Of a stretch of DNA of 64,000 nucleotides, positions 1,123 through 26,142 are shown piece by piece. Position 1 is the first letter of the stretch. Every line of letters starts with the position of its first letter. A program made the translations under genes and the position numbers. Origin of the DNA: a virus (Duplodnaviria > Caudoviricetes); IMG/VR virus record IMGVR_UViG_3300037067_021615, positions 38,662 through 102,661 of that record; one strand, given 5' to 3'. The notes beneath the pieces were generated by a model. The model saw nothing but the letters and a program-made list of their open reading frames with translations, was not told the DNA's origin and searched no databases.

Positions 1123-1557
1123 TTAATATGGGCAACTTGAGGAATCCATTGCCTTTTTTGCAATATCCTTTACAATGTTTTTATCGATAGTTTGAGCTTC
1201 TTTTATGATTGCTTCTAATTCTGCCTCATAATCCATTGACCTAAAGTTTGTCAAATCTTTTATCATTTCATCGGTAACAATTAGTAACATTATAAACCAT
1301 CTTAATTTATTTGTTTGTGTTCCTTCACATATAAGGTCTTTACATTCATAATTGGGGTCGCAATCTTTAAATAATTTTCCAATAGCAGTTTCACCAAAAG
1401 GAAGTTGTTTGTGTTCCCATAAATAATCTGTATATACACGTGACCTGTCACTTACCACTTTCCGTCCTTTTTTTTCAATTCTTTTATATGCAGCTTTTCT
1501 TCGAACTTCTAAGTGACGTTCTGCGGCCTCTTTGGTATTAAAATATCTTCTTTTCAT
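1123..1557 (-). CDS. Hypothetical protein with C-terminal major-capsid spine-helix-like segment
   Basis: TDEMIKDLTNFRSMDYEAELEAIIKEAQTIDKNIVKDI resembles gp23-family ELAQDLxAxHxxDAxAELxxxLxxxIxxEIDREI. Confidence 0.7.
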   Translation of the reverse strand: MKRRYFNTKEAAERHLEVRRKAAYKRIEKKGRKVVSDRSRVYTDYLWEHKQLPFGETAIGKLFKDCDPNYECKDLICEGTQTNKLRWFIMLLIVTDEMIKDLTNFRSMDYEAELEAIIKEAQTIDKNIVKDIAKKAMDSSSCPY

Positions 1558-1567
1558 TTTAAGTTAT

Positions 1568-2773
1568 TTAAACTGCCACTGGGGCTTTTATTGCTGACAA
1601 TGGATTATAATCAATTATTTTAATGTCGTCAATTCTAAAATCAAAGATATTTGTTATTTCTGGGTTTAATTTTAATTTTGGAAGTGGAGGACCATAATAA
1701 TTCCCAATGCTTCTATCTATTTCTTCTTTGGATAAAGAATAAAAATCTATAATCTCAGAATTTAACTCTCTTGTTCTATTTAACAATTCATTCACTTGGT
1801 TTTTATGATTAAGATATAAATGCAAATCTCCAAAGGTATGAACAAATTTATATGGTATCATATTTACTACTTGAGCAACCATATCCAGTAGCATAGCAAA
1901 AGACGCTATGTTAAAAGGAACTCCGAGAAAGGTATCTGCGCTTCTTTGATACAACTGTAAAGAAAGTCTAAATCTTGGAATTTTAAATGTTTCGCTACTT
2001 AATAGTTCTTGAATTTGTTCTTCGGTTCTTCCAGTTCCTACGACCCCTAATTCTAAAATATCATGGCCATCTTTAATAAAAATATTCATTCTTTCTTCGA
2101 AAGTGAGAGGTTCTGTAATAAATTGAAACAATGTGTGACATGGTCTAAGCGCCATTTCATTTAATTCATTAACTTGCCAGGCAGAAACGATGATACCTCT
2201 GTCATCTGGTCTGTTTTTTAATGTATCAATTACAACTTGAATCTGGTTTATGCCTTCTATAATTCCATTATTCCATGGATTTGCTGGAATTTCTGTTTTG
2301 CCGCAATTTATCCACTGCTTACCATAAACAGGGCCTAAATCTCCATAATCCAATGCAAATTTTTCATCAATTTTAATTCTTTCTATAAATTCTTCTTGAG
2401 ACATTATTCGAAAACTTTCGCTAGAAATATCTATAATGTGTAATTGGTCTACTGGCCTTAAAAGATTAGAACAAATTTTTTTATATTTAGCATAAGCCCA
2501 TTCGTCCCAAATATGAACATTATTATCAACTAAATACTTAATATTCGTATTCCCAAATATTTTATATTTTTCTGGCATTGCATTTAAAAACCAGAGCAAT
2601 TCGTGTATAACTCCATTTGTATATGTTTTTTTAAGAGTCAATAAAGGAAATCCATCTTTCATATAATAAACAGATTGATGCCCAAAAATTGATATAGTTC
2701 CTGTTCCAGTACGGTCTGTTTTAGTGCGTCCTTCTTTAAGGATGGCTGTAATTAAATCTATGTATTGTTTCAT
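1568..2773 (-). CDS. thyA: Thymidylate synthase
   Basis: DRTGTGT, HELLWFL, LGPVYGKQW, catalytic PCH, YQRSAD, PFNIAS, GDLHLY; carries insertions. Confidence 0.97.
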   Translation of the reverse strand: MKQYIDLITAILKEGRTKTDRTGTGTISIFGHQSVYYMKDGFPLLTLKKTYTNGVIHELLWFLNAMPEKYKIFGNTNIKYLVDNNVHIWDEWAYAKYKKICSNLLRPVDQLHIIDISSESFRIMSQEEFIERIKIDEKFALDYGDLGPVYGKQWINCGKTEIPANPWNNGIIEGINQIQVVIDTLKNRPDDRGIIVSAWQVNELNEMALRPCHTLFQFITEPLTFEERMNIFIKDGHDILELGVVGTGRTEEQIQELLSSETFKIPRFRLSLQLYQRSADTFLGVPFNIASFAMLLDMVAQVVNMIPYKFVHTFGDLHLYLNHKNQVNELLNRTRELNSEIIDFYSLSKEEIDRSIGNYYGPPLPKLKLNPEITNIFDFRIDDIKIIDYNPLSAIKAPVAV

Positions 2774-2778
2774 ATAAA

Positions 2779-3222
2779 TTATTTTATTTTTGTACTACCA
2801 AACCCGTTTTCTCCACGAACTGTATCAGAAATAACAAGTACACTATCTAATTTTACTTGTTCTACTTTTGTTATAACCATTTGAGCAATTCTATCACCTT
2901 GATTTACTGCAAAATCCTTATCTGAAAGATTGATAAGAATAACTCCAATATTTCCTCGGTAGTCAGCATCAATGGTACCAGGAGTGTTAAGAACAGTTAT
3001 TCCATGTTTTAATGCCAATCCACTTCTAGGCCTAATTTGAGCTTCAAATCCTACAGGGAGTTCAATAAATAAATCTGTCTTAATTAGAACTCTTTCAAAT
3101 GGTTTAATCCATATTGTTTGTTCATTTTCAATACTTGCTTTTAAATCCATTCCAGCAGATAGCGTTGTTGCATATTCAGGTAGGGAATTTTTTGATTTGT
3201 TTACGATTCTTACTATTGTCAT
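2779..3222 (-). CDS. dut: Trimeric dUTPase
   Basis: [36 protein letters not shown]. Confidence 0.97.
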
Positions 3223-3238
3223 ATTTTCAATTTTGCAG

Positions 3239-3269
3239 CAAATATATAAAAAAATAACAATTATTCAAA
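3239..3269 (-). promoter_or_regulatory. Bacteroidota housekeeping-type promoter for dut-thyA operon
   Basis: Minus strand TTTG(3266-69)-N19-TATATTTG(3239-46). Confidence 0.8.
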
Positions 3270-4367
3270 TTAATTTATGTGAAAAGTTTTAATAAATTGA
3301 TAATATGGCATAAAATCCTTAGAGATGTCTTTTAATTTTACAATTTTGTCATTTACATAAGTAATATCCATTTTTACTCTAGCAGCTTTTTCAAATTCAT
3401 CATTTTCAGCAAACTCAAGCATTTTTGAAGTTAAAATCTCTTTTGTTTTGTTAAATACCTCTGGTAAATGTTTTATCCCATATTTTAATCTGAATAATGA
3501 TTCATAGTCTTCTCTTATCTGTTTTGACATAATAATCATTTGGTCAAAATTAAATGAACTATCTATTTCAATAGTAATTCTATTCTCCAAAGGAAAATTA
3601 TTTTTTACTTCCATTAAATAATATACAAACAATTTATCAAGTAATATATTTTTCTCTTTTATTTTCAAATTAAAAGACCCACTAAAATCCATTGGGAGTT
3701 TTTTTAATATATTTTTGTTTGTTTGACAACTTTTTAAAATTATTTTATTTGGGTTGTACACATTATTAATTCTGATGAATTCACATTTAAATGGTAGCAA
3801 ATAATTTCTTAATTCATTGTTTGCCTTGGACATAAAATCTCCATTAAGGTTAAGATAACATTTATTTCCTGAAAATTTGCATTCTATAAATAAATAAAAA
3901 TATAATGTCAATCTTTCCCCAATTTCTGGTATTTTATAAACATTTGGTTTTATAAATGAATCTATAGTTTTTGGTTTTAAAACATTTTGCAAACTTGTTT
4001 CATCCTCTGCTAATTTTTTTATAATTTGTTTTGCTTCTTTTAAATTAAATAATTCAAATTCATCTTTTATTGTTTTTTCTAATTCTAAACTATAGTTCAT
4101 TCCCTTTTCCTCTAAAATCTTTTTAATTTCTTCAGTTGCAATATTTGGAAACTCTGGGTCTTGAGAAAATTCAAATGTTAATATATCAGATTCTATATAG
4201 CCTATGTTTTGAATGGCATAAATAGCCTTTTCATAGTCATCTTCATCGATAACTGTTTCATCCAAATATTGTCTTCCCTTCCTAGTCACAAAAATGATAG
4301 GTTTTTTGTTTTTGTCCAAGGGGTTTTCAATTATACAAAAATCTAAGTTTATATAGTTCATTACCAC
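3270..4367 (-). CDS. Hypothetical protein with C-terminal UVR (UvrB/C) motif
   Basis: KMLEFAENDEFEKAARVKMDI. Confidence 0.6.
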   Translation of the reverse strand: MVMNYINLDFCIIENPLDKNKKPIIFVTRKGRQYLDETVIDEDDYEKAIYAIQNIGYIESDILTFEFSQDPEFPNIATEEIKKILEEKGMNYSLELEKTIKDEFELFNLKEAKQIIKKLAEDETSLQNVLKPKTIDSFIKPNVYKIPEIGERLTLYFYLFIECKFSGNKCYLNLNGDFMSKANNELRNYLLPFKCEFIRINNVYNPNKIILKSCQTNKNILKKLPMDFSGSFNLKIKEKNILLDKLFVYYLMEVKNNFPLENRITIEIDSSFNFDQMIIMSKQIREDYESLFRLKYGIKHLPEVFNKTKEILTSKMLEFAENDEFEKAARVKMDITYVNDKIVKLKDISKDFMPYYQFIKTFHIN

Positions 4368-4478
4368 TGGTTTTGTTTTAATAAATATTATTTAATTTTT
4401 AGTCTTTTAGAAAATATATAAAAAACAACTTTTAAAAAAAATAGTTTTTGTTAATATTTATATAAAAGAAAAAAATAT

Positions 4479-4736
4479 ATGGAACTTGATGAAAAAGAAT
4501 TAAGAAAACAAATTAGAGAAATACTGTTGAATTCTGATGAATTAATGGATGGTGCTCTAAAACAAAAAAAAGGAATCTCTGAATTAAAAAAAGATTGCTA
4601 TACTAAACTTGTAGATTTAAAAAATGAATTTGAAGCTGACAAAGGAAATCCAAATAAAGAAGAAACAATTAAGAAAATTGATAGTCTTATAGCAGCATTA
4701 AATCAAATTAAATCATTTTTAGGTAAGCAATTATAA
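4479..4736 (+). CDS. Small putative head-internal protein
   Basis: N-terminal ELRKQIREIL helix; TATTTATA at 4455-4462. Confidence 0.55.
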   Translation: MELDEKELRKQIREILLNSDELMDGALKQKKGISELKKDCYTKLVDLKNEFEADKGNPNKEETIKKIDSLIAALNQIKSFLGKQL

Positions 4737-5626
4737 TTAGTTTTATATATTATTAAATGTGGGTGAATTTCTATGATTCTTTTCCAATTAGTTTCATTTA
4801 ATTTATAATAGCAGCATAAATCTATATATTCAGATGGGCTGTTTATTATCAACTTTTCCCATCCAAGAGCAGAAAGTTCTTCTTTATATTTTCTATCTTT
4901 AATTAAGAAGTTAAAATCTTGATTTTTAAATAAGCAAATAAGTTCAACGCTATTATAAATATCACTTTGTTTAAATTTATTTAAATCGCAATGATTTATT
5001 AACTCTGGTCTAATTTTTAGTATTTCTATCCATTTTCTTGCTGTGAGCTGTTTTAAATCTAAAATATTAAGAAACACATTTCCAGTATTAATAATTATAT
5101 CACATATATGATAATCTTTTAATTTTTTTAAATCAAAATTTCTTATCATATCTTCTGAAAAATTATTATATTCTATTATTTCATAAATTTCTTTGGATGT
5201 AAAATTGTATTTTTTAATATCTACTTTTTTTGAGATTTCATCAGCTCCAATAGTGAGTAAGCAAAAGGCGTCTTCGTGACCTATGTTATTCAAATCAATA
5301 TTAATTTTATCAATTAAATATGGACGAATTTTAAGCATGTTTTTTATTTCTTTTACAGCATAATTATATTTTGACAAATCCACAAAGTCTGCTATTTTTG
5401 CATTTCTAGCTACTACCCTTACAATTTTCATTCTGTCAATTTTATTCCATGGAATCATTTTGTGTAATTCCTCATTATCAGCAATTGACCTATCTGGTAT
5501 TTTATTATAATCAGCGTATTGACATATATGATATAATTCATCTTTGCTAAGTTCATGCCATTCATCCGATATAATTTTTGAAAGAAAAGCTTGTATAATA
5601 ATATTTGTTTTTTCGTTTATATTCAT
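4703..5626 (-). CDS. Alpha-solenoid repeat protein
   Basis: About 23-aa repeats D[LI]xK[LYF]xxxxWxx[IL][LI]xxxP. Confidence 0.6.
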   Translation of the reverse strand: MNINEKTNIIIQAFLSKIISDEWHELSKDELYHICQYADYNKIPDRSIADNEELHKMIPWNKIDRMKIVRVVARNAKIADFVDLSKYNYAVKEIKNMLKIRPYLIDKINIDLNNIGHEDAFCLLTIGADEISKKVDIKKYNFTSKEIYEIIEYNNFSEDMIRNFDLKKLKDYHICDIIINTGNVFLNILDLKQLTARKWIEILKIRPELINHCDLNKFKQSDIYNSVELICLFKNQDFNFLIKDRKYKEELSALGWEKLIINSPSEYIDLCCYYKLNETNWKRIIEIHPHLIIYKTNYNCLPKNDLI

Positions 5627-5634
5627 TATATTTG
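5604..5634 (+). promoter_or_regulatory. Bacteroidota-type promoter
   Basis: TTTG(5604-07)-N19-TATATTTG(5627-34), upstream of 5676. Confidence 0.7.
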
Positions 5635-5675
5635 CAATATTATAAAATATATATTATTTAAATAAAAAAATCAAT

Positions 5676-6026
5676 ATGGAAGAAAATAAAAAAATAATAG
5701 CAATTGATGTTAATAAATTAATCATCAGAACTTATAATAAGATTGCTATATGGAATAATCAAAGTGCATCAGATGAAGAAAAATCAATGATGTTAAAAGC
5801 ATTATCACATGATATTGTATCAGATATTATAACTACAGCATTTAGTAATTTAGAAGGAACGAAAGTAAGAGAAGAAATTATTCCAGAACAGCCAAAGAAA
5901 TTAGTTGTACCTGAAGAAAATAAAGATGCAGTTGTTATAAAAAATGATAAAAATACTGCTTCCAAAGCAATAAAGCCAAAGGGAATACTTTATAAACTAT
6001 TTAATGCAAAACAAAGTGATGATTAA
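5676..6026 (+). CDS. Hypothetical protein
   Basis: ORF with own host-type promoter. Confidence 0.6.
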   Translation: MEENKKIIAIDVNKLIIRTYNKIAIWNNQSASDEEKSMMLKALSHDIVSDIITTAFSNLEGTKVREEIIPEQPKKLVVPEENKDAVVIKNDKNTASKAIKPKGILYKLFNAKQSDD

Positions 6027-6033
6027 ATATTCC

Positions 6034-6606
6034 TTATTTTTTAAGATTTGTATCTTTATTTTGCATTTTGTATAAGTCAATTTCCTCTTCTGTTGTTTTT
6101 TCTCCCAAGCCGTCATTACTAAATTTAATGATATCAAATTTATTTGGGTCCATTTCTTCTTTTAAAAGAGTTTTTCTGTTTTTTTCTTGATATAATGGGT
6201 TTTTTAATTGCTTTTTTTGCTCATTTTCTAACAATCCACAAAGCTCCTTGTATCTTTTAGAAACATTTTCCATAGTGTTTTTTTTACTTTCTTCCATGCT
6301 TTCTTTATTTTCTTCTTCTTTTTTAGATTCTTCGGTTTTAACAGATTCTGCTTCTTTCTCCATTTTTTTAAGTCTTGTATAATAGTCTGGTAATTCATCC
6401 ATATGTGTTAGAACTATTTTAAAAGTTTGCATTGGGTCATCATTAGTAATATCTGTTTCTGGGCTTTTACTTCCATGTTCTAATTCTACTAACATTCCTT
6501 GAATCATTTCATTTATATCATATTTAGAAATATCCAAGTCCATTTTTTTTGCCAACAATTCAATTATTTTTTTAGTATAGCCTTTTGCCTTTTCATTCGT
6601 TTCCAT
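6034..6606 (-). CDS. DUF5661-like protein
   Basis: GMLVELEHG...DITNDD...KIVLTHMDELPDYYTRLKKME; RYKELCGL motif; TATTTATA at 6623-30. Confidence 0.7.
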   Translation of the reverse strand: METNEKAKGYTKKIIELLAKKMDLDISKYDINEMIQGMLVELEHGSKSPETDITNDDPMQTFKIVLTHMDELPDYYTRLKKMEKEAESVKTEESKKEEENKESMEESKKNTMENVSKRYKELCGLLENEQKKQLKNPLYQEKNRKTLLKEEMDPNKFDIIKFSNDGLGEKTTEEEIDLYKMQNKDTNLKK

Positions 6607-6642
6607 AACAGTTTAAATTTTTTATAAATATTAATAAATTTA

Positions 6643-7434
6643 TCAAAATCTTAACAAAGAATATTGTATACTTATTCCCACTCCTGGTCCTATAAGATAG
6701 GTACCCTTATTAAAAGTCATTCCAAATCCAATATAAGGCCCCACAGACCACTTTTTATTTTTAGATGGTGAAACAGGCGGATTAATCATATTTGATACAT
6801 CTGCGCCTTCTATTTGCCCCACAATTACATTTTCACTATCTGGAGTAATAAAGATTTTATATAAATTATTTTCTTTTTTAATTCCAGTTGTAAATCCAAG
6901 TTTTAAACTAATATCATTTATAGTAGAAATACCAGGACTTGTTTTAACTGAATATTTATTGGTTTCTTTGTCTATAAGAGTGGCTTCTGCAAAAAACGTA
7001 TTTGTTGATTTAATATGTAATGATTTATCTTTTGAATAATAGTCATAAACTAAAGAATATTCATTACTATCAAGTTGAATGATTGCATTTTTGACGGAAC
7101 CAGTATCTTTATATTCTATTTTTGTTTTCCATATAATTTTAACATCGCCTAACTCATTTTTTAATCTTTGATAAAGGTCTGGAAAGTATTTTTCAATTTC
7201 TTCAACAGACATATCTGCTATTGGTTTACTGTAAGATGTCTGCCCAGCTTTGTTTTTATATTTTGTAATAGAATCATTTAAAGCTGCTAGATTTTGCTGA
7301 GTTTTTTGTTCTTGACGTTTTAATTCGCTTTTTAATTTGTTTGTTGTATTGCATTGATTTAAAAAAAGCAAAAGAATAGCAACACTGGCAATTGCCAGTA
7401 TCATTTTAATATTATCTAAAATTTTTTTCCACAT
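6643..7434 (-). CDS. Membrane-anchored spanin-like protein with C-terminal beta-hairpin
   Basis: N-terminal TM followed by Cys, coiled coil, C-terminal KKWSVGPYIGFG...GVGISIQYSLLRF; late motif 7446-53. Confidence 0.55.
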   Translation of the reverse strand: MWKKILDNIKMILAIASVAILLLFLNQCNTTNKLKSELKRQEQKTQQNLAALNDSITKYKNKAGQTSYSKPIADMSVEEIEKYFPDLYQRLKNELGDVKIIWKTKIEYKDTGSVKNAIIQLDSNEYSLVYDYYSKDKSLHIKSTNTFFAEATLIDKETNKYSVKTSPGISTINDISLKLGFTTGIKKENNLYKIFITPDSENVIVGQIEGADVSNMINPPVSPSKNKKWSVGPYIGFGMTFNKGTYLIGPGVGISIQYSLLRF

Positions 7435-7471
7435 AATTTTTTTTTTATAAATATTACAAGAAAATAATAAA

Positions 7472-8248
7472 TTAAAGAGTCTGATTTAAATTTAAGAGGT
7501 GTATAGTTTCATCATTTTTTAGTCTTGTATAACCTGTAGCAAATAGAACAAATTCAAGCATCATTTTTTTATATTCTGTAGATGGAATAGTATTTCCTTT
7601 GCCACTTTGTTGAATAATTGTGCCACTTTTAATATCTATTTCAGTCGTTACATGTGGACAATTTTTTTCATCCCTTAAAGAAACTATTACAGACCTTTCA
7701 TTTTTAACTTTTGACATATAATACTTTTGTCCAACACACATACTCATTTTCTTGCCTTCATATATTAAATCATTCTCTGTTAAAAGATAAATAAAATGTT
7801 TTTTATTAGAACATCTAAATAAAACCCTATTGTTATCAACTTCTTGTATTTTGAAATCTTCTATATTGTATTTTTCGAACATTTCTTTATGCCATTGTTC
7901 TTGTTTATTAAAAGCATCTTCAAATGAATAACAAAATATATCTACTTTTGCTCCTATTGCCCAATCAATAATAAACCTAATTTTACTAAACTGATTTAAC
8001 AAGTCAAGATTTTTTTTTATTTCTTTTGCAATCCAAACATCATATTTATGCTTTCTTTTGGATGATTTTTCTAAATCTTTATTCTCTTTATCTCCAATAA
8101 AGCCGTATCTTTCTCCTATATTGGATATTTGTTTAATAATTTCATTAACTTTATCTTCAGATAAATATTCTTTTTTGCCACTTTTATTCTCTGGCAAAAA
8201 AATAGATTTTATATGTAATTCTCTTTTTGTAAGATTAAAAGAATGCAT
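7472..8248 (-). CDS. PcfJ-like domain protein
   Basis: QEQWH...LIYEGKKMSMCVG...VSLRD...PHVTTEI...QQSGKGN. Confidence 0.7.
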   Translation of the reverse strand: MHSFNLTKRELHIKSIFLPENKSGKKEYLSEDKVNEIIKQISNIGERYGFIGDKENKDLEKSSKRKHKYDVWIAKEIKKNLDLLNQFSKIRFIIDWAIGAKVDIFCYSFEDAFNKQEQWHKEMFEKYNIEDFKIQEVDNNRVLFRCSNKKHFIYLLTENDLIYEGKKMSMCVGQKYYMSKVKNERSVIVSLRDEKNCPHVTTEIDIKSGTIIQQSGKGNTIPSTEYKKMMLEFVLFATGYTRLKNDETIHLLNLNQTL

Positions 8249-8508
8249 TATATTATTAATTTAAGAATAATTTCTGTAGGGTCTTCTGTCTCTAAAACTT
8301 CATATCTTCCAATATATTCTTTGGGGTCTTCCATTCTAAGTCCATTTATTTTATGGTTTTTTTTAAATGTAAGAGTAAAATTTATTTCATTAAGAATAAG
8401 ATTTTTTATTGTGTAGCATTTCATTAAAACCCTTAATTTGTGCTGAAATATTGTAATGGGTTTTTTTTCAAAATCATCTTTTTTAATTTTAAAACTTCTA
8501 GCAACCAT
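8248..8508 (-). CDS. Hypothetical protein
   Basis: Operon-coupled ORF. Confidence 0.6.
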   Translation of the reverse strand: MVARSFKIKKDDFEKKPITIFQHKLRVLMKCYTIKNLILNEINFTLTFKKNHKINGLRMEDPKEYIGRYEVLETEDPTEIILKLII

Positions 8509-8519
8509 AAATTATTCTT

Positions 8520-9263
8520 CTATTTTTTTCTTTTAGACCCCTTTTTTGGACCTCTTTTTTTTGGTCTTCCTGGACCTTTTCTACTTTTTCGTTTCTTTTT
8601 TGGTTCTGCAGAATAATTTACTACTTCTTCTATTGCTTTGTCTAAAATAGTTTTCCCTTGTTTAGGCTCATCTATAACTTGTTTTTCTTGAGATTCAAGT
8701 AATAATGCTAAATTAGTATTAAGTGGTTGACGAAGATTATCAAGTATTCCAGATTTTTCCCATTTTTCAATAAGTTCTTCTTGCGTTTTTTTGTCTTTTG
8801 ACAAAGGAGTATTAATCTTATCAATGTCTGATTCTGTTTTAATAACTTCTCCTAGTTCTGTTTTGGCAACTTCTGGTTCTATTTTAACAACTTTTTGTTT
8901 AGAAATTTTTTGCTTTATTTTTTTTGTTTGCTTTTCTTTTTCCGTTGATGATTTATCATCGGTTAGGGAACTATGTAAATTGAGTAAAAATAACTTATTA
9001 TCAATCTCTTCTTCCTTATACCCAATGTAATATTTTAAAAATTCTGGCTTATTTTCTTCTTTAATATCTATAATTCCTTTTCTAGAATATATTTTTAAAG
9101 AATTAGAAAGATGATTTGTTTGTGAATAAACTATTTCTCCTGGGCGCAAATCAATTTGAATATCATTGCTAAAAATATCTTTAAAAAAGATTCTTATTTT
9201 TTCAGTGGCATTATGTCTTTCGTTGTTTAAAAATGTTACTTTAATGTCTTTTGTAGAACTCAT
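8520..9263 (-). CDS. Hypothetical protein with capsid-N-terminus-like segment and basic AT-hook-like tail
   Basis: LIEKWEKSGILDNL...NLALLLESQEKQV; tail RKGPGRPKKRGPKKGSKRKK. Confidence 0.7.
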   Translation of the reverse strand: MSSTKDIKVTFLNNERHNATEKIRIFFKDIFSNDIQIDLRPGEIVYSQTNHLSNSLKIYSRKGIIDIKEENKPEFLKYYIGYKEEEIDNKLFLLNLHSSLTDDKSSTEKEKQTKKIKQKISKQKVVKIEPEVAKTELGEVIKTESDIDKINTPLSKDKKTQEELIEKWEKSGILDNLRQPLNTNLALLLESQEKQVIDEPKQGKTILDKAIEEVVNYSAEPKKKRKSRKGPGRPKKRGPKKGSKRKK

Positions 9264-9304
9264 ATATTTTTTATTTAAATATAATAATTATAAATATTAA
9301 AATC

Positions 9305-9340
9305 AAAAAAAAATCCACCTAATTGATGGATTTTTTTTTT
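9305..9340 (-). terminator. Intrinsic terminator
   Basis: A-run-TCCA..TGGA-T-run inverted repeat downstream of the 9358 gene. Confidence 0.6.
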
Positions 9341-9357
9341 AATTTATTAATTTTTTA

Positions 9358-11052
9358 TTATTCTTTTGCTTTAAACAAAGGATTAAGTACAAGCTTATTT
9401 GTAAAATGGTCAATAATATAAGTTTTATTTTGTTTAACATCAGATTCTGAAAGTCTAAATACAATCATACTACCTTTTGCTTTTGGAACATCTAAAAAAC
9501 CTTTTTCTTCCCCAGAAAATGGAGTATTGCATAAATCTGATTCCAATGGTTTGTTAGTAGCTTCAAATTCTTTATTTGTATCAGACTCATATTCTTTTCT
9601 AGAAACTGTATCTGATTTATCTTTTATATTACAGAAACAATCATTTTCATATAATTCTTTCCATCTTTTTGATTGCTCTTTTTGTGTTAATTTTTCTGTA
9701 ATAACATATCTTTTATTAATTCCTTTTTCTTCATTTTCAGTCAAAGAAGAAAATTTTCTTTTTGTTAAATTAAGTTTTTTCTTATAAGTTTCTTCAATAC
9801 TTTTAGCTGTTTCTTCTATTTGATTTAATTCCCCATGCCCCGTTTCTTTTAGCTCTTCTGGGCTATTAACTTTGATACCATGTTTCCCCATTGTGTAATT
9901 ATGTTCCATCCCCTTTGGCGGCCATAATTTTTCACTCATTGGAACTTCTTCCACATAAGGAGTTTTTAAATTTTCTGTAATAAGTTTATAACTTCCATTT
10001 TCTTGTCTAACCAAATGGGGTCTTGGAGTTCTCATTTGACCATAAGTTGTGTTTTTTACAGCTTCACTCATTTGAACTTTTTCATATCCCAAATTTTTAC
10101 TAGCTTTATCTTCATGTTCTCCCCAACCGAATTTTTTGGCAAATCCAGGTCCAACCGAATTTTTATCTGCACCTTTTCCTTCGGTATCAGATGCTACTGG
10201 TCCTGCTAATGGAGCTGGAGATGTTGTTATTTCCTCAATTGTTTTATCTTCACTCCCAATAACAAGTTTTTTATCAGTTGGCTCTCCAGTTGGTGTTTCT
10301 GGGGTTTTAGCTCCCCTTTTTTCTTTCTCTTCGTTTGACTCAAGAGATTCGTTTACAAAATTATATATTTTTTTTCCAGCTTCTTCAAAAGAGCTTGATA
10401 AGATGTCTGTTAATTTCATATTATATTTATTTTCTTTTACAATTGAATCATTCATATTTTTTTCATTTTTATCATCATTTGCAATTTTGGTACCAACTAA
10501 ATATTCTGCTTCAGCTTGAGCAATTGGCTTAAAAAATTTTTTAAAATCTTTTATAAATGTTTTTTCATTTTCAATACCTGAAATAATCCCACTTTTATTT
10601 AATTTATTAGGAGCATATGTATCCTTTTCTGATGATTGGTGAAAGGCTGCAGCTTCTGTGTTTTTATAATCTATATGAACAGTTTTATCTTTTATTTCTA
10701 CATAAATTTCACTAACTATTTTTTTTCCGCCAAAAGTAGAGGTTTTTTGCATATATGAAACTGGTTTTGTAGCTCCCATATTAAGCATTTTTGGAATAGA
10801 AACTGTTACATTTAATTTCCCTTCTTGCGTTCCTTTCCCAACTTCTTTTTCTTTCCCATCTTTTCCTCCAGCAGCTATAACGAACATATAGCTATCTTTT
10901 TCTTCGTAGCCTAATTCTTTAAAAGCATTAATTGTTTCTTCTTTAATTATTTCTTCAATGTTTTCTCCTACAATTTTTTTAATTTTTTGACGTAGAGCAA
11001 AATCATCTGTTTGTTGTACAACGTTCTTTGGATATATTTCTTCTTTTTCCAT
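9358..11052 (-). CDS. Large Glu/Lys-rich putative head-internal protein (ATG at 11052)
   Basis: LRQKIKKIVGENIEEIIKEE; many [ILVM]xE sites; late motif 11070-77. Confidence 0.65.
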   Translation of the reverse strand: MEKEEIYPKNVVQQTDDFALRQKIKKIVGENIEEIIKEETINAFKELGYEEKDSYMFVIAAGGKDGKEKEVGKGTQEGKLNVTVSIPKMLNMGATKPVSYMQKTSTFGGKKIVSEIYVEIKDKTVHIDYKNTEAAAFHQSSEKDTYAPNKLNKSGIISGIENEKTFIKDFKKFFKPIAQAEAEYLVGTKIANDDKNEKNMNDSIVKENKYNMKLTDILSSSFEEAGKKIYNFVNESLESNEEKEKRGAKTPETPTGEPTDKKLVIGSEDKTIEEITTSPAPLAGPVASDTEGKGADKNSVGPGFAKKFGWGEHEDKASKNLGYEKVQMSEAVKNTTYGQMRTPRPHLVRQENGSYKLITENLKTPYVEEVPMSEKLWPPKGMEHNYTMGKHGIKVNSPEELKETGHGELNQIEETAKSIEETYKKKLNLTKRKFSSLTENEEKGINKRYVITEKLTQKEQSKRWKELYENDCFCNIKDKSDTVSRKEYESDTNKEFEATNKPLESDLCNTPFSGEEKGFLDVPKAKGSMIVFRLSESDVKQNKTYIIDHFTNKLVLNPLFKAKE

Positions 11053-11113
11053 TTGCAAATAGATTTTTTTATAAATATTAAAAAAAAACCTTTTTACATT
11101 TTTATTTTAAAAT

Positions 11114-11136
11114 AAAAAAGCTGCATCTCTGCAGCT
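11114..11136 (-). terminator. Intrinsic terminator
   Basis: Minus strand AGCTGCA-GAGA-TGCAGCT-TTTTT. Confidence 0.8.
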
Positions 11137-11137
11137 A

Positions 11138-11440
11138 TTATTTAATTAAATTTTTTTTTCTCCAAGCTTCCCAGGTATCACGGTCTTCAATTTTTAATCC
11201 TGGATTGTCTAAATATATATTATTTTCAAAAAAGTATCCTACAAATCTTTTTTTATATATGGTTTTCTTTTTTTTCTTCATATAATAATATGCATCCGTA
11301 TCATAGTCACCATCTTCAACTTGATATGATATAGTTTTATACATTTTTTTAGCAAATAGCCAAAATTTATAATTCCATTTTGCATTTAAAATATAAAATC
11401 TAAATCTTGAATGGTTCCATATTTTTTTAAAGATGTTCAT
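11138..11440 (-). CDS. Hypothetical protein (probable start MNIFKK at 11440)
   Basis: This start removes the overlap with the upstream ORF. Confidence 0.55.
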   Translation of the reverse strand: MNIFKKIWNHSRFRFYILNAKWNYKFWLFAKKMYKTISYQVEDGDYDTDAYYYMKKKKKTIYKKRFVGYFFENNIYLDNPGLKIEDRDTWEAWRKKNLIK

Positions 11441-11447
11441 ATGCAGA

Positions 11448-11843
11448 TTAATTTTTTTTAAATTCTTTGACACTAATTCTTTCATGTGCCGTGTGTTTAT
11501 CCCCACATTTTGAACATACACAATCATTTAAATCTTTGTATTCTTCTTTCTTTTCTGAATAAAAAGCATATCCAACTAATGTTGTAGAATGCATTTTTGA
11601 CCCACATTTTGGACAAACTTTATGAGCTTTGCTATATTTTCTCATGAATTTTTTATATTCTTTGCTGGGCTTATCTACGCATAAAGATGTGTATGGCAAA
11701 TATATATACGCAGATTCTATATATTCTTTTTCAATTGATACTTCAGCGACATTCATTTTTTTAATTTCAATTGTTTCATAAAATTCTGGATTAACTTTTT
11801 TTAAAGTATAGCGAAAAGTTATTTTTTTTATGTTCTTTTTCAT
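11448..11843 (-). CDS. Zn-ribbon protein with major-capsid C-terminal-like motifs
   Basis: FRYTLKKVNPEFYETIEI, ESAYIYLPY, then CPKCG...CSKCG. Confidence 0.7.
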   Translation of the reverse strand: MKKNIKKITFRYTLKKVNPEFYETIEIKKMNVAEVSIEKEYIESAYIYLPYTSLCVDKPSKEYKKFMRKYSKAHKVCPKCGSKMHSTTLVGYAFYSEKKEEYKDLNDCVCSKCGDKHTAHERISVKEFKKN

Positions 11844-12435: not shown

Positions 12436-13041
12436 TTAGATTTGACTTTCTGGAATTACTGGGACTTCATCTCTCTGCTCTTTTATGTTTTCTTTTTTAT
12501 TTTTTCTTTCTTCTTTTTCTTGATTAGTAATTCTTTCCACAACTGTATCAATCATTTCTGAACTATTTAATACTTTGGCTTCACCATAACATCTTAAATT
12601 GGAGGTATATTCTTTGCTATCGGCTGGATATTTTTTAGTTTTGTTATCAATATCAATATCAACACCACAAAGTATTTTATCTAATTGAATTACTTTATTT
12701 TCTATATCTAATTCTTTCCATGATTTATAATGAATGAAGAGTATGTAATCATATTCATCATTTACCATTTTTTCTACATCAGTACGCAAAGACAAATTTC
12801 CAAGTACGTATCTACCACCATCTTTTTTTACATTTGTAGTATAAAGATATTTAATTCTTTCTGGCTTTATGTCTTTGTTGTGTTCAGTATTAGATTTAAT
12901 CCAATTAGCAATCTGCAGTAATTCATCATCTGCATCTATGTATTTGCTACCACCAGCAAAAACCGTTTGCTTTTCTAAAAGTTCAACTTGTATCTCAGGA
13001 GTTTGTACTCCTCTTAATGCTAAAAAATTTTTTTCTGTCAT
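12436..13041 (-). CDS. Phage metallopeptidase-like protein lacking HExxH
   Basis: RIKYLY..GRYVLG..YDYILFI..WKEL..KVIQLDKILCG, where the family normally has LxDHELxH. Confidence 0.55.
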   Translation of the reverse strand: MTEKNFLALRGVQTPEIQVELLEKQTVFAGGSKYIDADDELLQIANWIKSNTEHNKDIKPERIKYLYTTNVKKDGGRYVLGNLSLRTDVEKMVNDEYDYILFIHYKSWKELDIENKVIQLDKILCGVDIDIDNKTKKYPADSKEYTSNLRCYGEAKVLNSSEMIDTVVERITNQEKEERKNKKENIKEQRDEVPVIPESQI

Positions 13042-13066: not shown

Positions 13067-13097
13067 CAAAGATAAGAAAAAAAAATATGAAAACAAA
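13067..13097 (-). promoter_or_regulatory. Bacteroidota-type promoter
   Basis: TTTG(13094-97)-N19-TATCTTTG(13067-74). Confidence 0.8.
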
Positions 13098-14750: not shown

Positions 14751-16841
14751 TTATTCGTTTTGTAATTTTAAATCTTTTATGGGTCTATAAGATATATCTT
14801 TAATTGTAAGAAATTCCATTAATAATCTTTTGAATCTATCTGACCCTGGTTTATTAGCAAATCCTTTTACTTGGTGAAATTCGAGTCCATTGACACTATC
14901 AAATGTAAACCCAATTGTAAATCTTATTAATTCATCTGGAGATAAATCTGCAGTTCTATCAAATACTTGCCCAATAACATAAGATTCTGTAATAACTTTT
15001 TTGGAATAAGATGATGCACTATGCTTCATTTGAACCCCTTCTGTTATAAGCATAGCTGGAGTGGATATTAATTTGAATTCTAAAGGTCCCTCATAATCTT
15101 CTCTGCTTTCTAAAAACTTAAATCTGTTAACAAAATCTTTAAATTTAGCATTTTTTTCTTTATCTGCCACAACGTTAAAATATTTAACCAAGTTATCGTG
15201 ATAATCTATTAATTCCTTATATGTTCTAATTTTATTAAATTCCTTTCTAGGGTCAAATTCTAGAACCTCCATCATCATTATACTGTCATCATAAAACACA
15301 AATTCAAATTTATTTACATTTGAATAATCTGGAATAAAATTTTCCATGTTAAGAGTTGGCTTATATTTAAGTGTTTCTTGAATTGTATAGTCTTTTATTA
15401 TGGCAATAATTCTTTCGAACTCTTTAATGTCAACATTATCTCTAAAATAAATTAAATCTATAACCCTTGTAAGTAATTCTAAGTCATGTTTTTGTAATAA
15501 AGATATTATTTGATGCTTATCGTAGAATTTAAAATATTTTAATAATTGTTTATAATCCGAAAAATTTTTTATGTTTTTATATATAAACTTTGAGGCATTT
15601 GCATCATTTGATATTTCCATTACTTGAAATTTGTTTGCATCAGCATTGTGGGAAATTTTAGTTTTATAATCTTTGTTTTCTTTATAAATAATTTTCATTT
15701 CTTTTTCTTCGCCTTCAATTACTTCAAAGCTTTTGATTTCTTCTTTTCTTTCTGAAGGCTTTCTTTTTAAATCTGCAGCTTCATCAATTTCCATTTTTAT
15801 TATTTTACTTGATTTAAAAAGGAACTCATGAATTTCTTTGTTATCTTCATTTACTTCTTCATTTATCTTTTTAATATAGTTGCTAACAAGATAATTAAAT
15901 ATAGGAATTGGGGATGTTAATCCACCATCTTTCAATTTGCTACTACTTGGGACATCACATTCTTTCATTAAATCATATAAAAATTTGCAGCCTTTAGTTA
16001 AAGCTATAGTAGACAGATTAGAATATTTTATTATCCCAAAAAATATAGAAACAACTTTTTTTATTGAATCCAAACCTGCATGATTAAATCTATTTTTCAC
16101 TTCTCCCAATAACTCTTCTACAACATTAGTGTTTTTAACATCTATAACATATTTAGCAAGTTTACTAACATATAATTGCACATAATATAAGTTATAGATA
16201 TTGGGAATTTCTTCAGTAAAAATGTTATCAGTTACTTTTGTAATCATATCCAAATCAAACTCTATTTCATTAGCATCAAAGTCTTTGAAATATATTTTAT
16301 TAAATGATATGTTGTATTTTATGTATTTACATTTTTGTTCAAAGTCAAGAGTATATGCTGGGTTTGTATTTGTTCCACTTTTTTTGATGTCTGGCTTTAT
16401 TTTTGCATAATATAAAAATAATTCATTTTCTGTTTCTAAAACATTATATCCAGATATAAAATATGAATTGTCTACAATTAATTTTTGTTGATTTTCTAAT
16501 GTAGCAAAATTTTTATTGCATCCATTACACCTTATTATAATATCATCATCTTCTGACAATTTTATACTTTTAAACAAATCTGCAAATTCATCATCATTAT
16601 CTTTACAAATTATACTTAACTTATCTGATTTACTTTCATTGTTTTTAAGTTCTACAGGTAAATTAATTTTTTCTGGAAACAAATAGTCTATTTGCTCATG
16701 TTTTGGAATTTCTTTTACAATTTTTTTTTCAGTTTCTGTTATAACACCACAGTTACAAAAATAAATTTCTTTTTCTCTTTCTTTATCTTCAAATAAAAAA
16801 GAATATTCTTTTTTAATTTCTTTTATATCTAAAACTTGCAT
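14751..16841 (-). CDS. Large PcfJ-like domain protein
   Basis: N-terminal CxCG and CxxC; C-terminal YHDNL..EGVQMKHSASSY..QVKGFAN. Confidence 0.7.
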   Translation of the reverse strand: MQVLDIKEIKKEYSFLFEDKEREKEIYFCNCGVITETEKKIVKEIPKHEQIDYLFPEKINLPVELKNNESKSDKLSIICKDNDDEFADLFKSIKLSEDDDIIIRCNGCNKNFATLENQQKLIVDNSYFISGYNVLETENELFLYYAKIKPDIKKSGTNTNPAYTLDFEQKCKYIKYNISFNKIYFKDFDANEIEFDLDMITKVTDNIFTEEIPNIYNLYYVQLYVSKLAKYVIDVKNTNVVEELLGEVKNRFNHAGLDSIKKVVSIFFGIIKYSNLSTIALTKGCKFLYDLMKECDVPSSSKLKDGGLTSPIPIFNYLVSNYIKKINEEVNEDNKEIHEFLFKSSKIIKMEIDEAADLKRKPSERKEEIKSFEVIEGEEKEMKIIYKENKDYKTKISHNADANKFQVMEISNDANASKFIYKNIKNFSDYKQLLKYFKFYDKHQIISLLQKHDLELLTRVIDLIYFRDNVDIKEFERIIAIIKDYTIQETLKYKPTLNMENFIPDYSNVNKFEFVFYDDSIMMMEVLEFDPRKEFNKIRTYKELIDYHDNLVKYFNVVADKEKNAKFKDFVNRFKFLESREDYEGPLEFKLISTPAMLITEGVQMKHSASSYSKKVITESYVIGQVFDRTADLSPDELIRFTIGFTFDSVNGLEFHQVKGFANKPGSDRFKRLLMEFLTIKDISYRPIKDLKLQNE

Positions 16842-23142: not shown

Positions 23143-26142
23143 TTATTTATTTTTAATCCTCTTAAGTAAGTCTTTATAAATACTTTCATTAACTGTTGTA
23201 CTCTCCTTTTTGTATTCTTTATTATCCAAGGTTTTGGTTACAATATAAGATTTATCTTTTAAAAGTTCCATAATATCTTCGTCAACAGTGTCCTGACAAT
23301 AAGGAGTTATTATTTCTACTGTATCTGCGGTAGTGCTAGCTCTATGTATTCTATCCTCTACTTGCTCTTCATCTGCTGGAGTCCAAGCAAATCCCAATTT
23401 GATAAGTTTACTTGCAGCAGTTAAAGTATTGCCAACCCCAGATGCTATAATCATTCCAGAGAATACTTTTATTTCTTTATCTTCTTGAAATTTATCTATT
23501 ACTGATTGTTTTTCAGCAACTGACATTTCTCCAGTATGTAAAACGGCTATTTTCCCAAATTCTTTTGCTATTTCTTTTGCCAATTCAATATAGTCTGAAA
23601 CAACTACAACCTTTTCTCCACTTTCAACTATGTCTTCTATTATTTCTTTGATTCGATTTACTTTGATTCTTCCAGTAAACATTTTGAGCTTGTGGATTTT
23701 GGTTAAATAATTATCTTTCTTTTCTATTTCCTTGCCATCAACTATTTCCTTTTTTACTTCATTTAATAATTTTTGATATTCTGCATATTCCTTATCGTCG
23801 AGTTCGATAGGAATTTCTAAATAAGTTTTTGGAGGAAGTTCTTTTAAAACATCACGTTTTAATCTTCTTAAAAAATATGGAGAAACTCTTGTAAATAACT
23901 CTTCTAAATTGGATGCTCCATCATAAATCCAACCAAAATTATCTTGATATCCTGCTCCATATCTAACTCCAAATTCATGAGAATTCTTCCATTCTTCTGG
24001 AAAAATAAAGTTTAAGGTTGAAAAAAATTCAGATGGTCTACTTTTTATGACAGTCCCAGATAAAAGAATTTTTTTTGGAATACATGAAAATGCTTTATGA
24101 ATAATTTTTGTCCAAGTAGTTTTCAGTTCCTTCATTTTATGGCATTCATCAATAATGATTAAATCATAATTTGATGGGTCTATCTCTTGAGAGAATTTAT
24201 CTTGAAAAGATACTAAACTGGCTATTCTTGTTTTAATTTTTCCAGTGTTTTCACAAATGGGGCATTTTTTATACTGCTTTGTGAGGTCTGTTTGTTCCCA
24301 TGTACATTTTCCCATTTTGCCACTCGCTTGTAACATATTTCCGCTACATTTGTGATGATATTCAAGCTTTATATATGAATCAATTGATTCATAATTGGTG
24401 ATATGAAACAAAGACTCTTCTTTTGTGTGTGCTATAATTTTGCTTTTCTTTTTAGGCTTAAATTTATAGACAAATGCTTTTTCATTGGTAAATTTTAATA
24501 TTTCATTTCGCCACATCAATTTTAATGATGCTGGGCATATCACTAGTGTTTTTAATTTGTGTTTTACAGCGTAAGCGAATGCAGGTGCTGTATTATGAGT
24601 GACTGTATAATTTGTTGTTAAAAATGTATTGTCTGGAGAATCTACAGAAATGCAAACACATTCATCTTTGCCGACATACTCAACACTTTTTATATATCGT
24701 GAACAATAATTATTTTTAACAATATTCCATTCCTTCTTTTTTGAGTCTAAGTAAAATGGGCATACTTTCATTCTTACATTTACCCGATGTTCTATACCTT
24801 TATTTTCTTTTGTTCTATCATATGAATATAATAATGCTTGCCCGCCCAAAGATTGAACTAATTCAATTACATCTTTCGCTAATTGCAAAGACTTTGTATG
24901 ATAATGTATTTTGTTTTTATCTGCACTTCCATCTGTATCCATTAATCCTCTTAATAATTCAATTCTCTGTTCTATAGAGGCAAACATATATTCTTTTGGA
25001 ATAAATTTATCAACTGATTTGACGTTAAGACCAAGCCGTTTAATTTCTGATTTAATAATATTTTTGCCAACAGAAGTATTTCTGGTCATATAATATTGAG
25101 GACAATTTGGAAAATTATTAATTTTTGTTTTAAATCCTTTTGGCAATTTAGGGTCAATTATTTCTTTTATCTGAATTTGATGGTCTGGAATTGATATACA
25201 TATGCCGTCCAGCACTAAGCATCTATCTCCGATTAGTGCACCAAGTATATATGGGTCTATGACAAATTTTTTTTTAAGGTAATTAACTGGCTCACTTAAT
25301 GGGATTTCCCATTTCAAAACAGGCTTTCTGGTTGTTAAAGCTCTTTTTCCTTTATGATTATAGCTCAATCCAGAATTTACTAATTCTTTTAAAGTTTTTG
25401 TAATCCATCCAGTGCCCCTTTTTCTTCTATTTACATCTCTTACAGTCCAAATATGGTCTAAACTACAATTGACAAATGATTCATCATTAAATGTTACTTT
25501 ATAAACATCTAAAGTACCTTGTGGATATACTCCAGAAACGTTGTACAAGTTACCATCTCGATTAAATATTTTTTGTCCAACTTTAATATCTCCAATTTTA
25601 AAGCACCCATTAATACCAAATACTAATTCATCAATTTTGAGGCTTTTACCTACTCCAGGTTGGTCTCCTAAAATCGACTTTCCGTCGTTTATTTCAAAGA
25701 ATTTAACAGCCTTTTTTTGATAATCATATGGCTGAATTTTCATAAAAGAATAATCTTCTCCAGAAATATCTAATTGTTCAGCTTTTAAACGTAATACTTC
25801 TGCTATTCTTTTTTGCCTTTCAAAATATTCGTTTTTTAATCTTTCAAGAGCATCTTGGGTAATATTTTCAAAAGCAAATCTTATTTTATTATCAATTAAA
25901 AATGCTAAAATTTCTCCTATTTTTGCTTCACTTACAATTCTTACCCATTCATCTTTTGGATTTCCATCCATTCCTATGACACTATCTTTTCTAACAGCCC
26001 TATGTTCTTTTGGCAATCGTTTTATATATTCTGAAAGAATTTTTAAATAATCATATCTTAATTCGAAATTAACTTTTAATTTTCTTATTTTTACAAAATT
26101 TATTTCTTGACTAGTTGCCTCCTTTTTCGTATTCTTTGCCAT
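23143..26142 (-). CDS. SNF2-family (SMARCAL1/HARP-like) helicase containing an intein
   Basis: GDQPGVGK|T, CPASLK, DECH, LSGT, LRRLK, QVEDRIHR. Confidence 0.92.
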   Translation of the reverse strand: MAKNTKKEATSQEINFVKIRKLKVNFELRYDYLKILSEYIKRLPKEHRAVRKDSVIGMDGNPKDEWVRIVSEAKIGEILAFLIDNKIRFAFENITQDALERLKNEYFERQKRIAEVLRLKAEQLDISGEDYSFMKIQPYDYQKKAVKFFEINDGKSILGDQPGVGKSLKIDELVFGINGCFKIGDIKVGQKIFNRDGNLYNVSGVYPQGTLDVYKVTFNDESFVNCSLDHIWTVRDVNRRKRGTGWITKTLKELVNSGLSYNHKGKRALTTRKPVLKWEIPLSEPVNYLKKKFVIDPYILGALIGDRCLVLDGICISIPDHQIQIKEIIDPKLPKGFKTKINNFPNCPQYYMTRNTSVGKNIIKSEIKRLGLNVKSVDKFIPKEYMFASIEQRIELLRGLMDTDGSADKNKIHYHTKSLQLAKDVIELVQSLGGQALLYSYDRTKENKGIEHRVNVRMKVCPFYLDSKKKEWNIVKNNYCSRYIKSVEYVGKDECVCISVDSPDNTFLTTNYTVTHNTAPAFAYAVKHKLKTLVICPASLKLMWRNEILKFTNEKAFVYKFKPKKKSKIIAHTKEESLFHITNYESIDSYIKLEYHHKCSGNMLQASGKMGKCTWEQTDLTKQYKKCPICENTGKIKTRIASLVSFQDKFSQEIDPSNYDLIIIDECHKMKELKTTWTKIIHKAFSCIPKKILLSGTVIKSRPSEFFSTLNFIFPEEWKNSHEFGVRYGAGYQDNFGWIYDGASNLEELFTRVSPYFLRRLKRDVLKELPPKTYLEIPIELDDKEYAEYQKLLNEVKKEIVDGKEIEKKDNYLTKIHKLKMFTGRIKVNRIKEIIEDIVESGEKVVVVSDYIELAKEIAKEFGKIAVLHTGEMSVAEKQSVIDKFQEDKEIKVFSGMIIASGVGNTLTAASKLIKLGFAWTPADEEQVEDRIHRASTTADTVEIITPYCQDTVDEDIMELLKDKSYIVTKTLDNKEYKKESTTVNESIYKDLLKRIKNK
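24592..25644 (-). mobile_element. 351-aa intein with LAGLIDADG homing endonuclease, inserted in Walker A
   Basis: Starts SLKID after GK; block B DHIW; GALIGDR and RGLMDTDG; ends THN before +1 Thr. Confidence 0.93.

Follow-up and report, generated by a model that had tools for sequence, protein, structure and literature searches.

Three genes with segments of the major capsid protein

The subject of this work is a 64,000-nucleotide stretch of phage DNA (the window), which comprises bases 38,662-102,661 of a 102,661-bp IMG/VR record (IMGVR_UViG_3300037067_021615; about 27% G+C, rated 29% complete by CheckV), and in it three small genes that carry pieces of the major capsid protein (MCP) of T4-like phages. 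The record is a fragment of a huge AT-rich T4-like phage, with a baseplate wedge protein, an SbcCD-like nuclease and a helicase among the T4-like functions encoded on its contig, and a megablast search of the contig against GenBank phages returned nothing. The three open reading frames (ORFs), here called P1 (1123-1557, 144 amino acids), P2 (8520-9263, 247 amino acids) and P3 (11448-11843, 131 amino acids), all lie on the minus strand. P1, a member of a family of small phage proteins, is encoded by the last gene of an operon that starts with a dUTPase gene (2779-3222, minus strand) and continues with a thymidylate synthase gene (1568-2773, minus strand; 401 amino acids; PF00303, E = 4.8e-88). 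P3 is encoded by the fourth gene of an operon that opens with a phage metallopeptidase gene (first gene at 12436-13041). According to the initial annotation, each of the three ORFs contains a segment that resembles a different, non-overlapping part of the MCP and that is joined to an unrelated part. Both statements hold, the unrelated part being a basic N-terminal helix in P1, a small β domain together with an AT-hook tail in P2 and a zinc ribbon in P3.

The capsid gene itself had been noted as absent from the window, and indeed no gp23-family gene is found in the whole 102,661-bp record. Comparisons were therefore made to the MCP of a relative, G001 (IMGVR_UViG_3300014208_000024; 372,283 bp, rated 100% complete), rather than to the cognate MCP. 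G001 was found through a P1 homologue, shares with the window a syntenic block (263-amino acid ORF/190-amino acid ORF/.../dUTPase/ThyA/P1) and also has orthologues of P2 and of the 566-amino acid neighbour of P2 (73% identity). Its head module is of the T4 type and encodes an S77 prohead protease (166865-167605), an acidic, coiled-coil protein resembling a scaffold (165440-166804) and a 560-amino acid MCP of the Gp23 family (204.6 bits with Pfam PF07068), whose closest cultured counterparts are the MCPs of Flavobacterium phages (vB_FspM_immuto) at about 42% identity.

When each ORF was aligned locally to the G001 MCP and compared with 500 shuffles, residues 52-136 of P1 matched MCP residues 303-388 with a score of 91 (shuffles 30.6 ± 4.7, maximum 54), residues 137-199 of P2 matched residues 1-60 with a score of 90 (33.6 ± 4.5, maximum 54) and residues 6-31 of P3 matched residues 533-558 with a score of 49 (29.7 ± 4.0, maximum 46). 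Queried in all six frames with the MCP, the contig yielded P2 and P1 and no other match. A clade profile built from 78 MCPs of related IMG/VR loci (76 of at least 500 amino acids used, all filters off) placed P2 (E = 1.5e-7), P1 (3.3e-6) and P3 (0.08) at ranks 1 to 3 among all 400 contig ORFs of at least 40 amino acids, with rank 4 at E = 0.41 and noise setting in at about E = 0.4. Comparison of family alignments by hhalign gave a probability of 95.8% (E = 7.8e-9) for the P1 family against the MCP, and for the P3 family an E value of 0.0035 with a probability of only 9%. In the reverse direction, the MCP was the sole non-family match of the P1-family profile both in G001 (E = 3e-5) and in G002 (E = 2e-5), a complete phage genome of 518,809 bp with terminal repeats (IMGVR_UViG_3300014205_000170), and the P3-family profile matched a G002 ORF that bears a C-terminal MCP fragment. 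Finally, motif patterns derived from the MCP matched only MCPs and fragment-bearing ORFs in three genomes, where about zero matches are expected by chance.

Could segments that are short, prone to form helices or strands and biased in composition nevertheless resemble the MCP by chance? Pfam and PHROGs yielded sub-threshold matches only for P1, P2 and P3; the Pfam Gp23 model matched P1 at no better than E = 0.15 (11.8 bits against a cut-off of 24.4; profile positions 155-198 of 376) and did not match P2 or P3, and the P3 match is short and, taken alone, marginal. Against chance, however, stand the shuffling tests and the first three ranks among 400 ORFs, the profile-profile probability obtained for P1 and the reciprocal profile matches, the specificity of the motifs and the independent recurrence of such pieces in G001 and G002. 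For P1 and P2 chance is already contradicted by these data, and overall we regard it as extremely improbable. We thus consider the homology of P1 and P2 to the MCP secure and that of P3, for which the evidence consists of E values of 0.08 and 0.0035, a pair of motifs and the connection with the G002 fragment, moderately secure. None of the three ORFs contains the complete MCP fold (N-arm, E-loop, P domain and A domain), as each covers one short stretch of the MCP (1-60, 303-391, or 505-516 plus 533-558), and they do not qualify as members of the Gp23 family (PF07068). Instead, we take the comparisons to show that the three ORFs carry genuine, diverged copies of the MCP propeptide helices, of a β-strand with the spine helices and of the C-terminal strands.

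The P1, P2 and P3 families

The MCP-like module of P1, as delimited by alignment and profiles, comprises residues 52-137 (1147-1404, minus strand), and its core, residues 95-137, corresponds to the β-strand, the spine helix and the following helix of the MCP (residues 303-391 in G001). A word-indexed search recovered a family of 16 members (P1 and 15 homologues) and an exhaustive profile search 79 clusters at 50% identity, all of 59-210 amino acids. Invariant positions of the family lie in two places, one being the N-terminal basic helix (R-Y-F-N-T-K-E-A-A-E-R-H-L-E-V-R-R-K-A-A-Y-K-R-I-E-K-K-G) and the other the MCP-like element (W ... T-D-E-M-I-K-D-L ... S-I-D-x-E-A-E-L). In the 16-member alignment W87, T95, D96, E97 and D101 never vary and L102 hardly does; these residues lie within or beside the MCP-like helix, and the same motif is kept across the 79 clusters. 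One distant member reads W-T-P-E-M-I-E-D-L and is thus intermediate to the W-T-P-E-L-A-Q-D-L of the MCP, and most members are matched individually by the MCP profile. The P1 family is an old one, with the spine module as its conserved core.

An AlphaFold2 model of P1 based on the family alignment (mean predicted local distance difference test score of 89) consists of a helix (9-29), a long hairpin (40-53 and 75-90) and three further helices (96-103, 110-122 and 126-139). Searches of the model against the PDB (Foldseek, VIA-align) returned no meaningful match and no capsid protein (best Z 4.2), and the P1-family profile found nothing among PDB sequences. A prediction of the complex between the P1 family and the G001 MCP scored 0.00; it was run without controls and carries no weight for or against binding. 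A derivation of the N-terminal helix of P1 (V-R-R) from the N-arm of the MCP (F-P-I-V-R-R) was considered as well and abandoned, as hhalign gave no supporting alternative alignment. Two observations may be added. The thymidylate synthase encoded upstream of P1 contains an insertion of about 135 amino acids relative to the 266-position Pfam model, its orthologue in G001 being 417 amino acids long, and a 164-amino acid database protein (P0140) carries two MCP spine pieces in tandem, preceded, separated and followed by the motif T-R-K-V-L-F-E-K.

P2 consists of a small β domain, a hypervariable linker, a short conserved helix and an AT-hook-like basic tail. Its MCP-propeptide-like segment (residues 152-200; 8664-8810, minus strand) reads W-E-K-S-G-I-L-D-N-L ... 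L-L-L-E-S-Q, is modelled as two helices and ends in V-I-D-E, which aligns with the predicted maturation site M-L-N-E of the MCP. The 38 members of the P2 family share the β domain of about 100 residues, an acidic and lysine-containing hypervariable linker, the short helix T-I-L-D-K-A-I and the basic tail (8523-8603, minus strand, in P2), whose sequence G-P-G-R-P-K-K-R-G-P-K-K-G is nearly invariant in the 24 members aligned and has the G-R-P core with Arg/Lys flanks of an AT-hook. The 49 propeptide-like residues, by contrast, occur only in the window protein and in one identical database entry, and the G001 orthologue lacks residues ~105-187. The MCP-like piece of P2 is, to judge from this distribution, a one-off insertion into the variable linker. 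A protein-atlas search with the N-terminal domain of P2 found only unnamed viral clusters and a generic small β-barrel or cupin-like shape. The idea that a conserved prohead-protease site precedes the C-terminal helix throughout the P2 family was not supported across the members. The neighbour of P2 (9358-11058, minus strand; 566 amino acids) has no family match; its G001 counterpart lies at C1:268156-270030 on the plus strand.

In P3 an N-terminal MCP-like module precedes a CxxC...CxxC zinc ribbon. Residues 5-32 (11748-11831, minus strand) resemble the last strand of the MCP (533-558 in G001) and residues 41-55 (11679-11723, minus strand), with the motif A-Y-I-Y-L-P-Y, resemble the MCP strand G-Y-I-Y-A-P-Y (about 505-516). 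As the latter strand precedes the last strand in the MCP and follows it in P3, the order of the two is permuted. The zinc-ribbon core (residues 77-116; 11496-11615, minus strand) is common to all 13 members of the family, with two CxxC knuckles formed by the invariant C77, C80, C110 and C113, although its matches to Pfam zinc ribbons are weak and below the cut-offs. The N-terminal MCP-like strands are present in six or seven members, and those with the N-terminal extension are matched individually by the MCP profile; one of the family, P0066, contains a longer stretch of the C-terminal region of the MCP. Another, P0064, lacks the N-terminal module and instead ends in a propeptide-like sequence (L-I-K-R-W-Q-D-S-G-Y-L-D-N-I ... 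T-N-L-L; MCP profile positions 16-53, E = 8e-4), so that one zinc-ribbon family bears two different MCP-derived pieces.

Outside the window, identical copies of P1 and P3 are both encoded on a further contig of 149,537 bp. Searches of 50,697 GenBank phages by tblastn gave no match for P1, P2 or one of the mini-MCPs described below, and the zinc ribbon of P3 matched only an unannotated 642-kb metagenomic phage. The initial annotation had treated the three genes as one system, a view that is not borne out by their differing histories and ages. It had also named lack of conservation in homologues as the observation that would speak against its proposal; P1 and P3 do not show it, and P2 does, since its segment is present only in this phage's version among the 38 family members.

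Capsid-protein pieces in related giant phages

The same kind of gene recurs in the relatives. G001 encodes four paralogous mini-MCPs of 124-145 amino acids (C1:73409-73783 and 98327-98731 on the minus strand, 206315-206752 and 311014-311430 on the plus strand), which join the propeptide motif (W..SGLLEGL), the N-arm sequence F-P-I-V-R-R and the I-D-A-E-A-E-L helix and omit everything in between (hhalign against the MCP, probability 95.7%, E = 1e-8); the window contig has none. In the same genome the C-terminal ~120 residues of a dCMP deaminase (C1:16446-17321, minus strand) are a piece of the MCP A domain (E = 6.6e-20), a fusion that is unique among the 22 deaminase loci in IMG/VR. Within the MCP, the P1 piece (303-391), the deaminase piece (383-530) and the P3-type pieces (502-590) adjoin one another and could in principle re-associate. 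G002 is devoid of the P1, P2 and P3 families and has its own trio of small ORFs, which match an N-terminal, a spine and a C-terminal part of the MCP profile (positions 23-108, E = 1e-22; 351-400, 4e-16; and 524-584, 5e-12). Among the 93 G002 proteins of at least 350 amino acids the MCP alone has three such small partial partners, and six others have one each. No MCP pieces were found, at the sensitivity used, in G004, a complete 294-kb genome of the sister MCP clade.

These data show the MCP to be a favoured donor, parts of whose gene have more than once in this lineage of huge T4-like phages been copied and joined to accessory proteins unrelated to it. The P2 insert and the G001 deaminase fusion are one-off grafts, and the P1 family, the P3-type N-terminal module and the mini-MCP paralogues have long been maintained by selection.

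Most of the fragments are somewhat closer to the MCPs of their own clade, and they are far more diverged than the MCP itself. P1 scored 37 bits against its own and 24 against the sister clade, the N-terminal piece of G002 72 against 63 and its C-terminal piece 56 against 46. The sister clade scored slightly better with the G001 deaminase piece (70.1 versus 68.1 bits) and the G002 spine piece (56.5 versus 53.5 bits). The latter two cases are what might be expected if the fragments were weapons, that is, dominant-negative pieces that spoil head formation in related phages sharing the cell and leave the phage's own, insensitive MCP unharmed, and early synthesis of P1 and P3 (see below) would suit such a role. 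However, the advantages are small and most fragments lean the other way, and the MCP elements which they copy are nearly invariant across the clade, so that self-poisoning would be hard to avoid. We therefore think it quite improbable that the fragments serve as weapons against competitors.

A second feature of G002 accompanies its MCP pieces, every one of which is flanked by the motif [RK]x[VIM][LIVFM]xEK, typically (Y/H)-T-R-x-V-L-x-E-K. The motif occurs 186 times in 181 of the 819 G002 genes (22%), compared with 7.75 occurrences expected from shuffles, mostly near the N- or C-termini of proteins of about 124 amino acids that are encoded in long gene arrays, and it is not enriched in G001 (10 versus 7 expected). 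Its third codon positions vary, which argues for selection at the protein level and led us to dismiss a DNA repeat or a miniature inverted-repeat transposable element as its source. By its sequence the motif would fit a hydrophobic-x-Glu protease site. A conserved I-N-K-R-Y-(V/I)-I-T-E-K-L in the 566-amino acid neighbour of P2 is weakly similar to it.

Directly downstream of the MCP gene of G001 (C1:162062-163558, minus strand) lies an ORF of 498 amino acids with a ROS/MUCR-type zinc finger and a weak match to REase_MTES_1575, possibly a homing-endonuclease-like gene. A gene of this kind beside the capsid gene could help to explain why MCP DNA has frequently been broken and copied elsewhere.

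Expression signals and other genes of the window

The initial annotation had placed two of the three genes in operons behind exact host-type promoters. Exact matches to the Bacteroidota-type pattern TTTG-N19-TAnnTTTG are indeed found at 3239-3269 (minus strand), 17 nt upstream of the dUTPase start codon, and at 13067-13097 (minus strand), 26 nt upstream of the first gene of the P3 operon. The pattern itself is only mildly enriched in the window (11 sites versus 5.0 ± 2.3 expected, a count reached by 3 of 100 shuffles), and as promoters the sites are thus plausible but unproven. Their type fits the kinship of the G001 MCP with those of Flavobacterium phages.

P2 is not preceded by a host-type promoter and instead follows a recurrent motif of the phage's own, TATTTATA (9289-9296, minus strand), located 33 nt upstream of its start codon. 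In an unbiased k-mer count covering G000 and G001, 110 of the 617 upstream regions contained this motif, where 10.5 are expected, usually in the context (A/T)ATATTTATA(A/T)AAAA. On the contig 29 genes have it at a distance of 13-47 nt upstream, among them genes of the baseplate region, P2 and the 566-amino acid neighbour of P2, and in G001 it precedes the genes for the MCP and the prohead protease. By analogy with the T4 sequence TATAAATA it is probably a late-type promoter. Further words enriched in upstream regions are TTCCCACTTTT, TTTTCGTATA and AATTTGCTTTATAT.

If the host-type matches are taken at face value, P1 and P3 would plausibly be made before the MCP. Such timing would suit immune decoys, that is, fragments made early that occupy or blunt bacterial sensors of the MCP. 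Capsid-sensing defences exist in other hosts (Lit/Gol, CapRel and PifA), and the fragments evolve much faster than the MCP, as would be expected in an arms race. But neither for this uncultured phage nor for its host is a sensor known, a fragment resembling the trigger would be expected to activate a sensor rather than silence it, and P2 stands behind a late-like motif. Moreover, the pieces stem from four different regions of the MCP, which a single sensor would not all see. A decoy function therefore strikes us as unlikely.

Other genes of the window include those for a 1250-amino acid protein that unites SbcD-like and SbcC-like parts in a single chain (29505-33257, minus strand) and for a 999-amino acid protein in which a P-loop ATPase region (matching terminase, DnaC-like loader and primase PHROGs) is combined with a helicase (23143-26142, minus strand). 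Two PcfJ-like proteins (Pfam PF14284) are encoded on either side of the P2/P3 region (7472-8248 and 14751-16841, both minus strand).

Proposed mimicry of capsid interfaces and its alternatives

But why would a phage keep parts of its capsid protein in proteins that are not capsid proteins? The reading which we favour, and to which we would give about an even chance, is that the retained MCP modules mimic assembly interfaces of the MCP. In each retained module those residues are preserved that never vary in the corresponding structural element of real MCPs, and a carrier of the module might thereby engage whatever the matching element of the MCP engages. P2, which is probably expressed late, would be directed by its propeptide copy with the hydrophobic-x-Glu end to the environment of the scaffold and the prohead protease, much as by a capsid-targeting propeptide, and its entry into the prohead would possibly leave the DNA-binding tail behind. 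Such an entry is suggested by the combination of a late-type motif, a propeptide copy whose terminal I-D-E takes the place of the MCP's L-N-E, and an AT-hook tail, and is in line with the presence in G001 of TATTTATA before the MCP and protease genes and of the S77 protease gene beside the scaffold and MCP genes. The modules of P1 and P3, on the other hand, would attach to freshly synthesized MCP, or to the proteins that work with it, and in this way set the timing of assembly, chaperone it or modulate it. The early-type operons of both genes point to an action on new MCP or its partners, or else to no role in the capsid. Of the three roles put forward in the initial annotation (decoys for capsid-sensing immunity, inhibitors of competing phages and prohead-docking tags), we infer that docking, or mimicry, fits the added evidence best.

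Several observations weigh against interface mimicry. P1 and P3 belong to non-structural operons, of nucleotide metabolism and with a metallopeptidase respectively, which lie behind host-type promoter matches and away from the head genes. In the model of P1 the MCP-like strand and helices form one compact domain together with the N-terminal helix, and could thus be conserved to maintain the fold of P1 itself and not because of a partner in common with the MCP. The P2 insert and the deaminase fusion are unique and hence may be neutral; the P2 insert may equally be a recent neutral capture. None of the four mini-MCP genes of G001 has TATTTATA within 90 nt upstream, and that genome encodes many pairs (85) of otherwise unrelated proteins with a partial segment in common. 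Likewise, the notion that fragments track the MCP of their own genome by co-evolution or gene conversion had to be given up, as the cognate MCP is not the best match.

Several of these points would be readily accommodated if the pieces had been exapted without any link to the capsid, that is, captured by a general segment-shuffling recombination, with the survivors doing no more than lending structure, or an inert linker, to proteins of nucleotide metabolism, DNA binding or regulation. The 85 partial-match pairs attest to such shuffling, the synteny of P1 with dut-thyA in two genomes and the attachment of an MCP piece to a dCMP deaminase, in a fusion found once, are in keeping with it, and so are the single compact domain of P1 and the confinement of the unique P2 insert to a hypervariable linker. 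However, exaptation of this kind would not readily explain that the MCP is over-represented as donor, that the same MCP elements have been retained independently in three genomes, that the fragments conserve precisely the residues invariant in MCPs, several of them acidic, and that a single zinc-ribbon family has received two different MCP pieces. We regard it as a possible explanation, to be taken seriously, which nevertheless has the odds against it.

We tentatively suggest, as a conjecture that is doubtful in its full breadth, that huge T4-like phages carry an undescribed class of capsid-interface mimics, in which sub-domain pieces of the MCP (propeptide, N-arm, spine helix, half of the A domain, C-terminal strands) are grafted onto nucleic-acid-binding or metabolic proteins or stand alone as mini-MCPs, and are selected for engaging the partners of the MCP. 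They would do so to load cargo into very large proheads, to set the timing of assembly or the size of the head, or to hamper competing phages or capsid-sensing immunity, and the R-x-V-L-x-E-K tag of G002 may be the signal by which such pieces are processed or targeted.

Capsid proteins are commonly regarded as the products of single-purpose structural genes, and here sub-domain pieces of one have been reused repeatedly in small accessory proteins of giant phages, with at least two of the resulting families under long-term selection. Should these be interface mimics, they would represent natural portable tags with which cargo could be brought into T4-type heads, candidates for regulating the timing and size of very large capsids and new players in conflicts between phages or between phages and host defences. 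Even if they were neutral, they would clearly exemplify how new genes can be assembled out of pieces of an essential one. For annotation it follows that a weak capsid match in a small ORF need not be noise.

Comparison with known systems

Full-text literature searches found no description of MCP sub-domain pieces in accessory genes. One of the nearest parallels is offered by the capsid-targeting sequences of T4 and the long propeptides of giant-phage head proteins, which are thought to target proteins into proheads, the T4-type prohead proteases cutting after hydrophobic-x-Glu (PMC5694885). What P2 would have in common with the targeting sequences of the T4 proteins IPI-III and Alt and with the propeptides of SPN3US, phiKZ and 201phi2-1 is a short removable peptide that takes unrelated cargo into the prohead and ends in hydrophobic-x-Glu; the putative likeness consists in the end of the propeptide copy and in the S77 protease of the lineage. 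Known targeting sequences are N-terminal, and the module here is internal in P2, C-terminal in P0064 and N-terminal in the mini-MCPs. To our knowledge, no capsid-targeting sequence has been reported to derive from the propeptide of the MCP itself.

Another parallel is found in capsid-sensing immunity by the Lit exclusion protease, in which a short peptide within T4 gp23, the Gol region, has an activity of its own away from the capsid. Gol, however, belongs to the complete MCP and sets off a host defence, and the three pieces in the window do not cover the Gol region. The N-arm motif FPIVRR of the G001 mini-MCPs probably corresponds to the start of that region, and we know of no free-standing phage-encoded copy of Gol.

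The vertex protein gp24 of T4 likewise arose by duplication of the MCP gene and was kept because it fits the MCP lattice. It is a complete HK97-fold protein, whereas here pieces of 25-90 residues, below the threshold of the Pfam Gp23 model, are carried on unrelated domains. Finally, the capsid-redirecting proteins of satellites, including MCP homologues such as Ccm of the phage-inducible chromosomal islands (PICI), alter head assembly by imitating or binding the MCP. These proteins are encoded by a satellite, are whole and act on the capsid of a helper; in the phages described here it is the phage itself that carries the pieces, each of them a sub-domain of the MCP.

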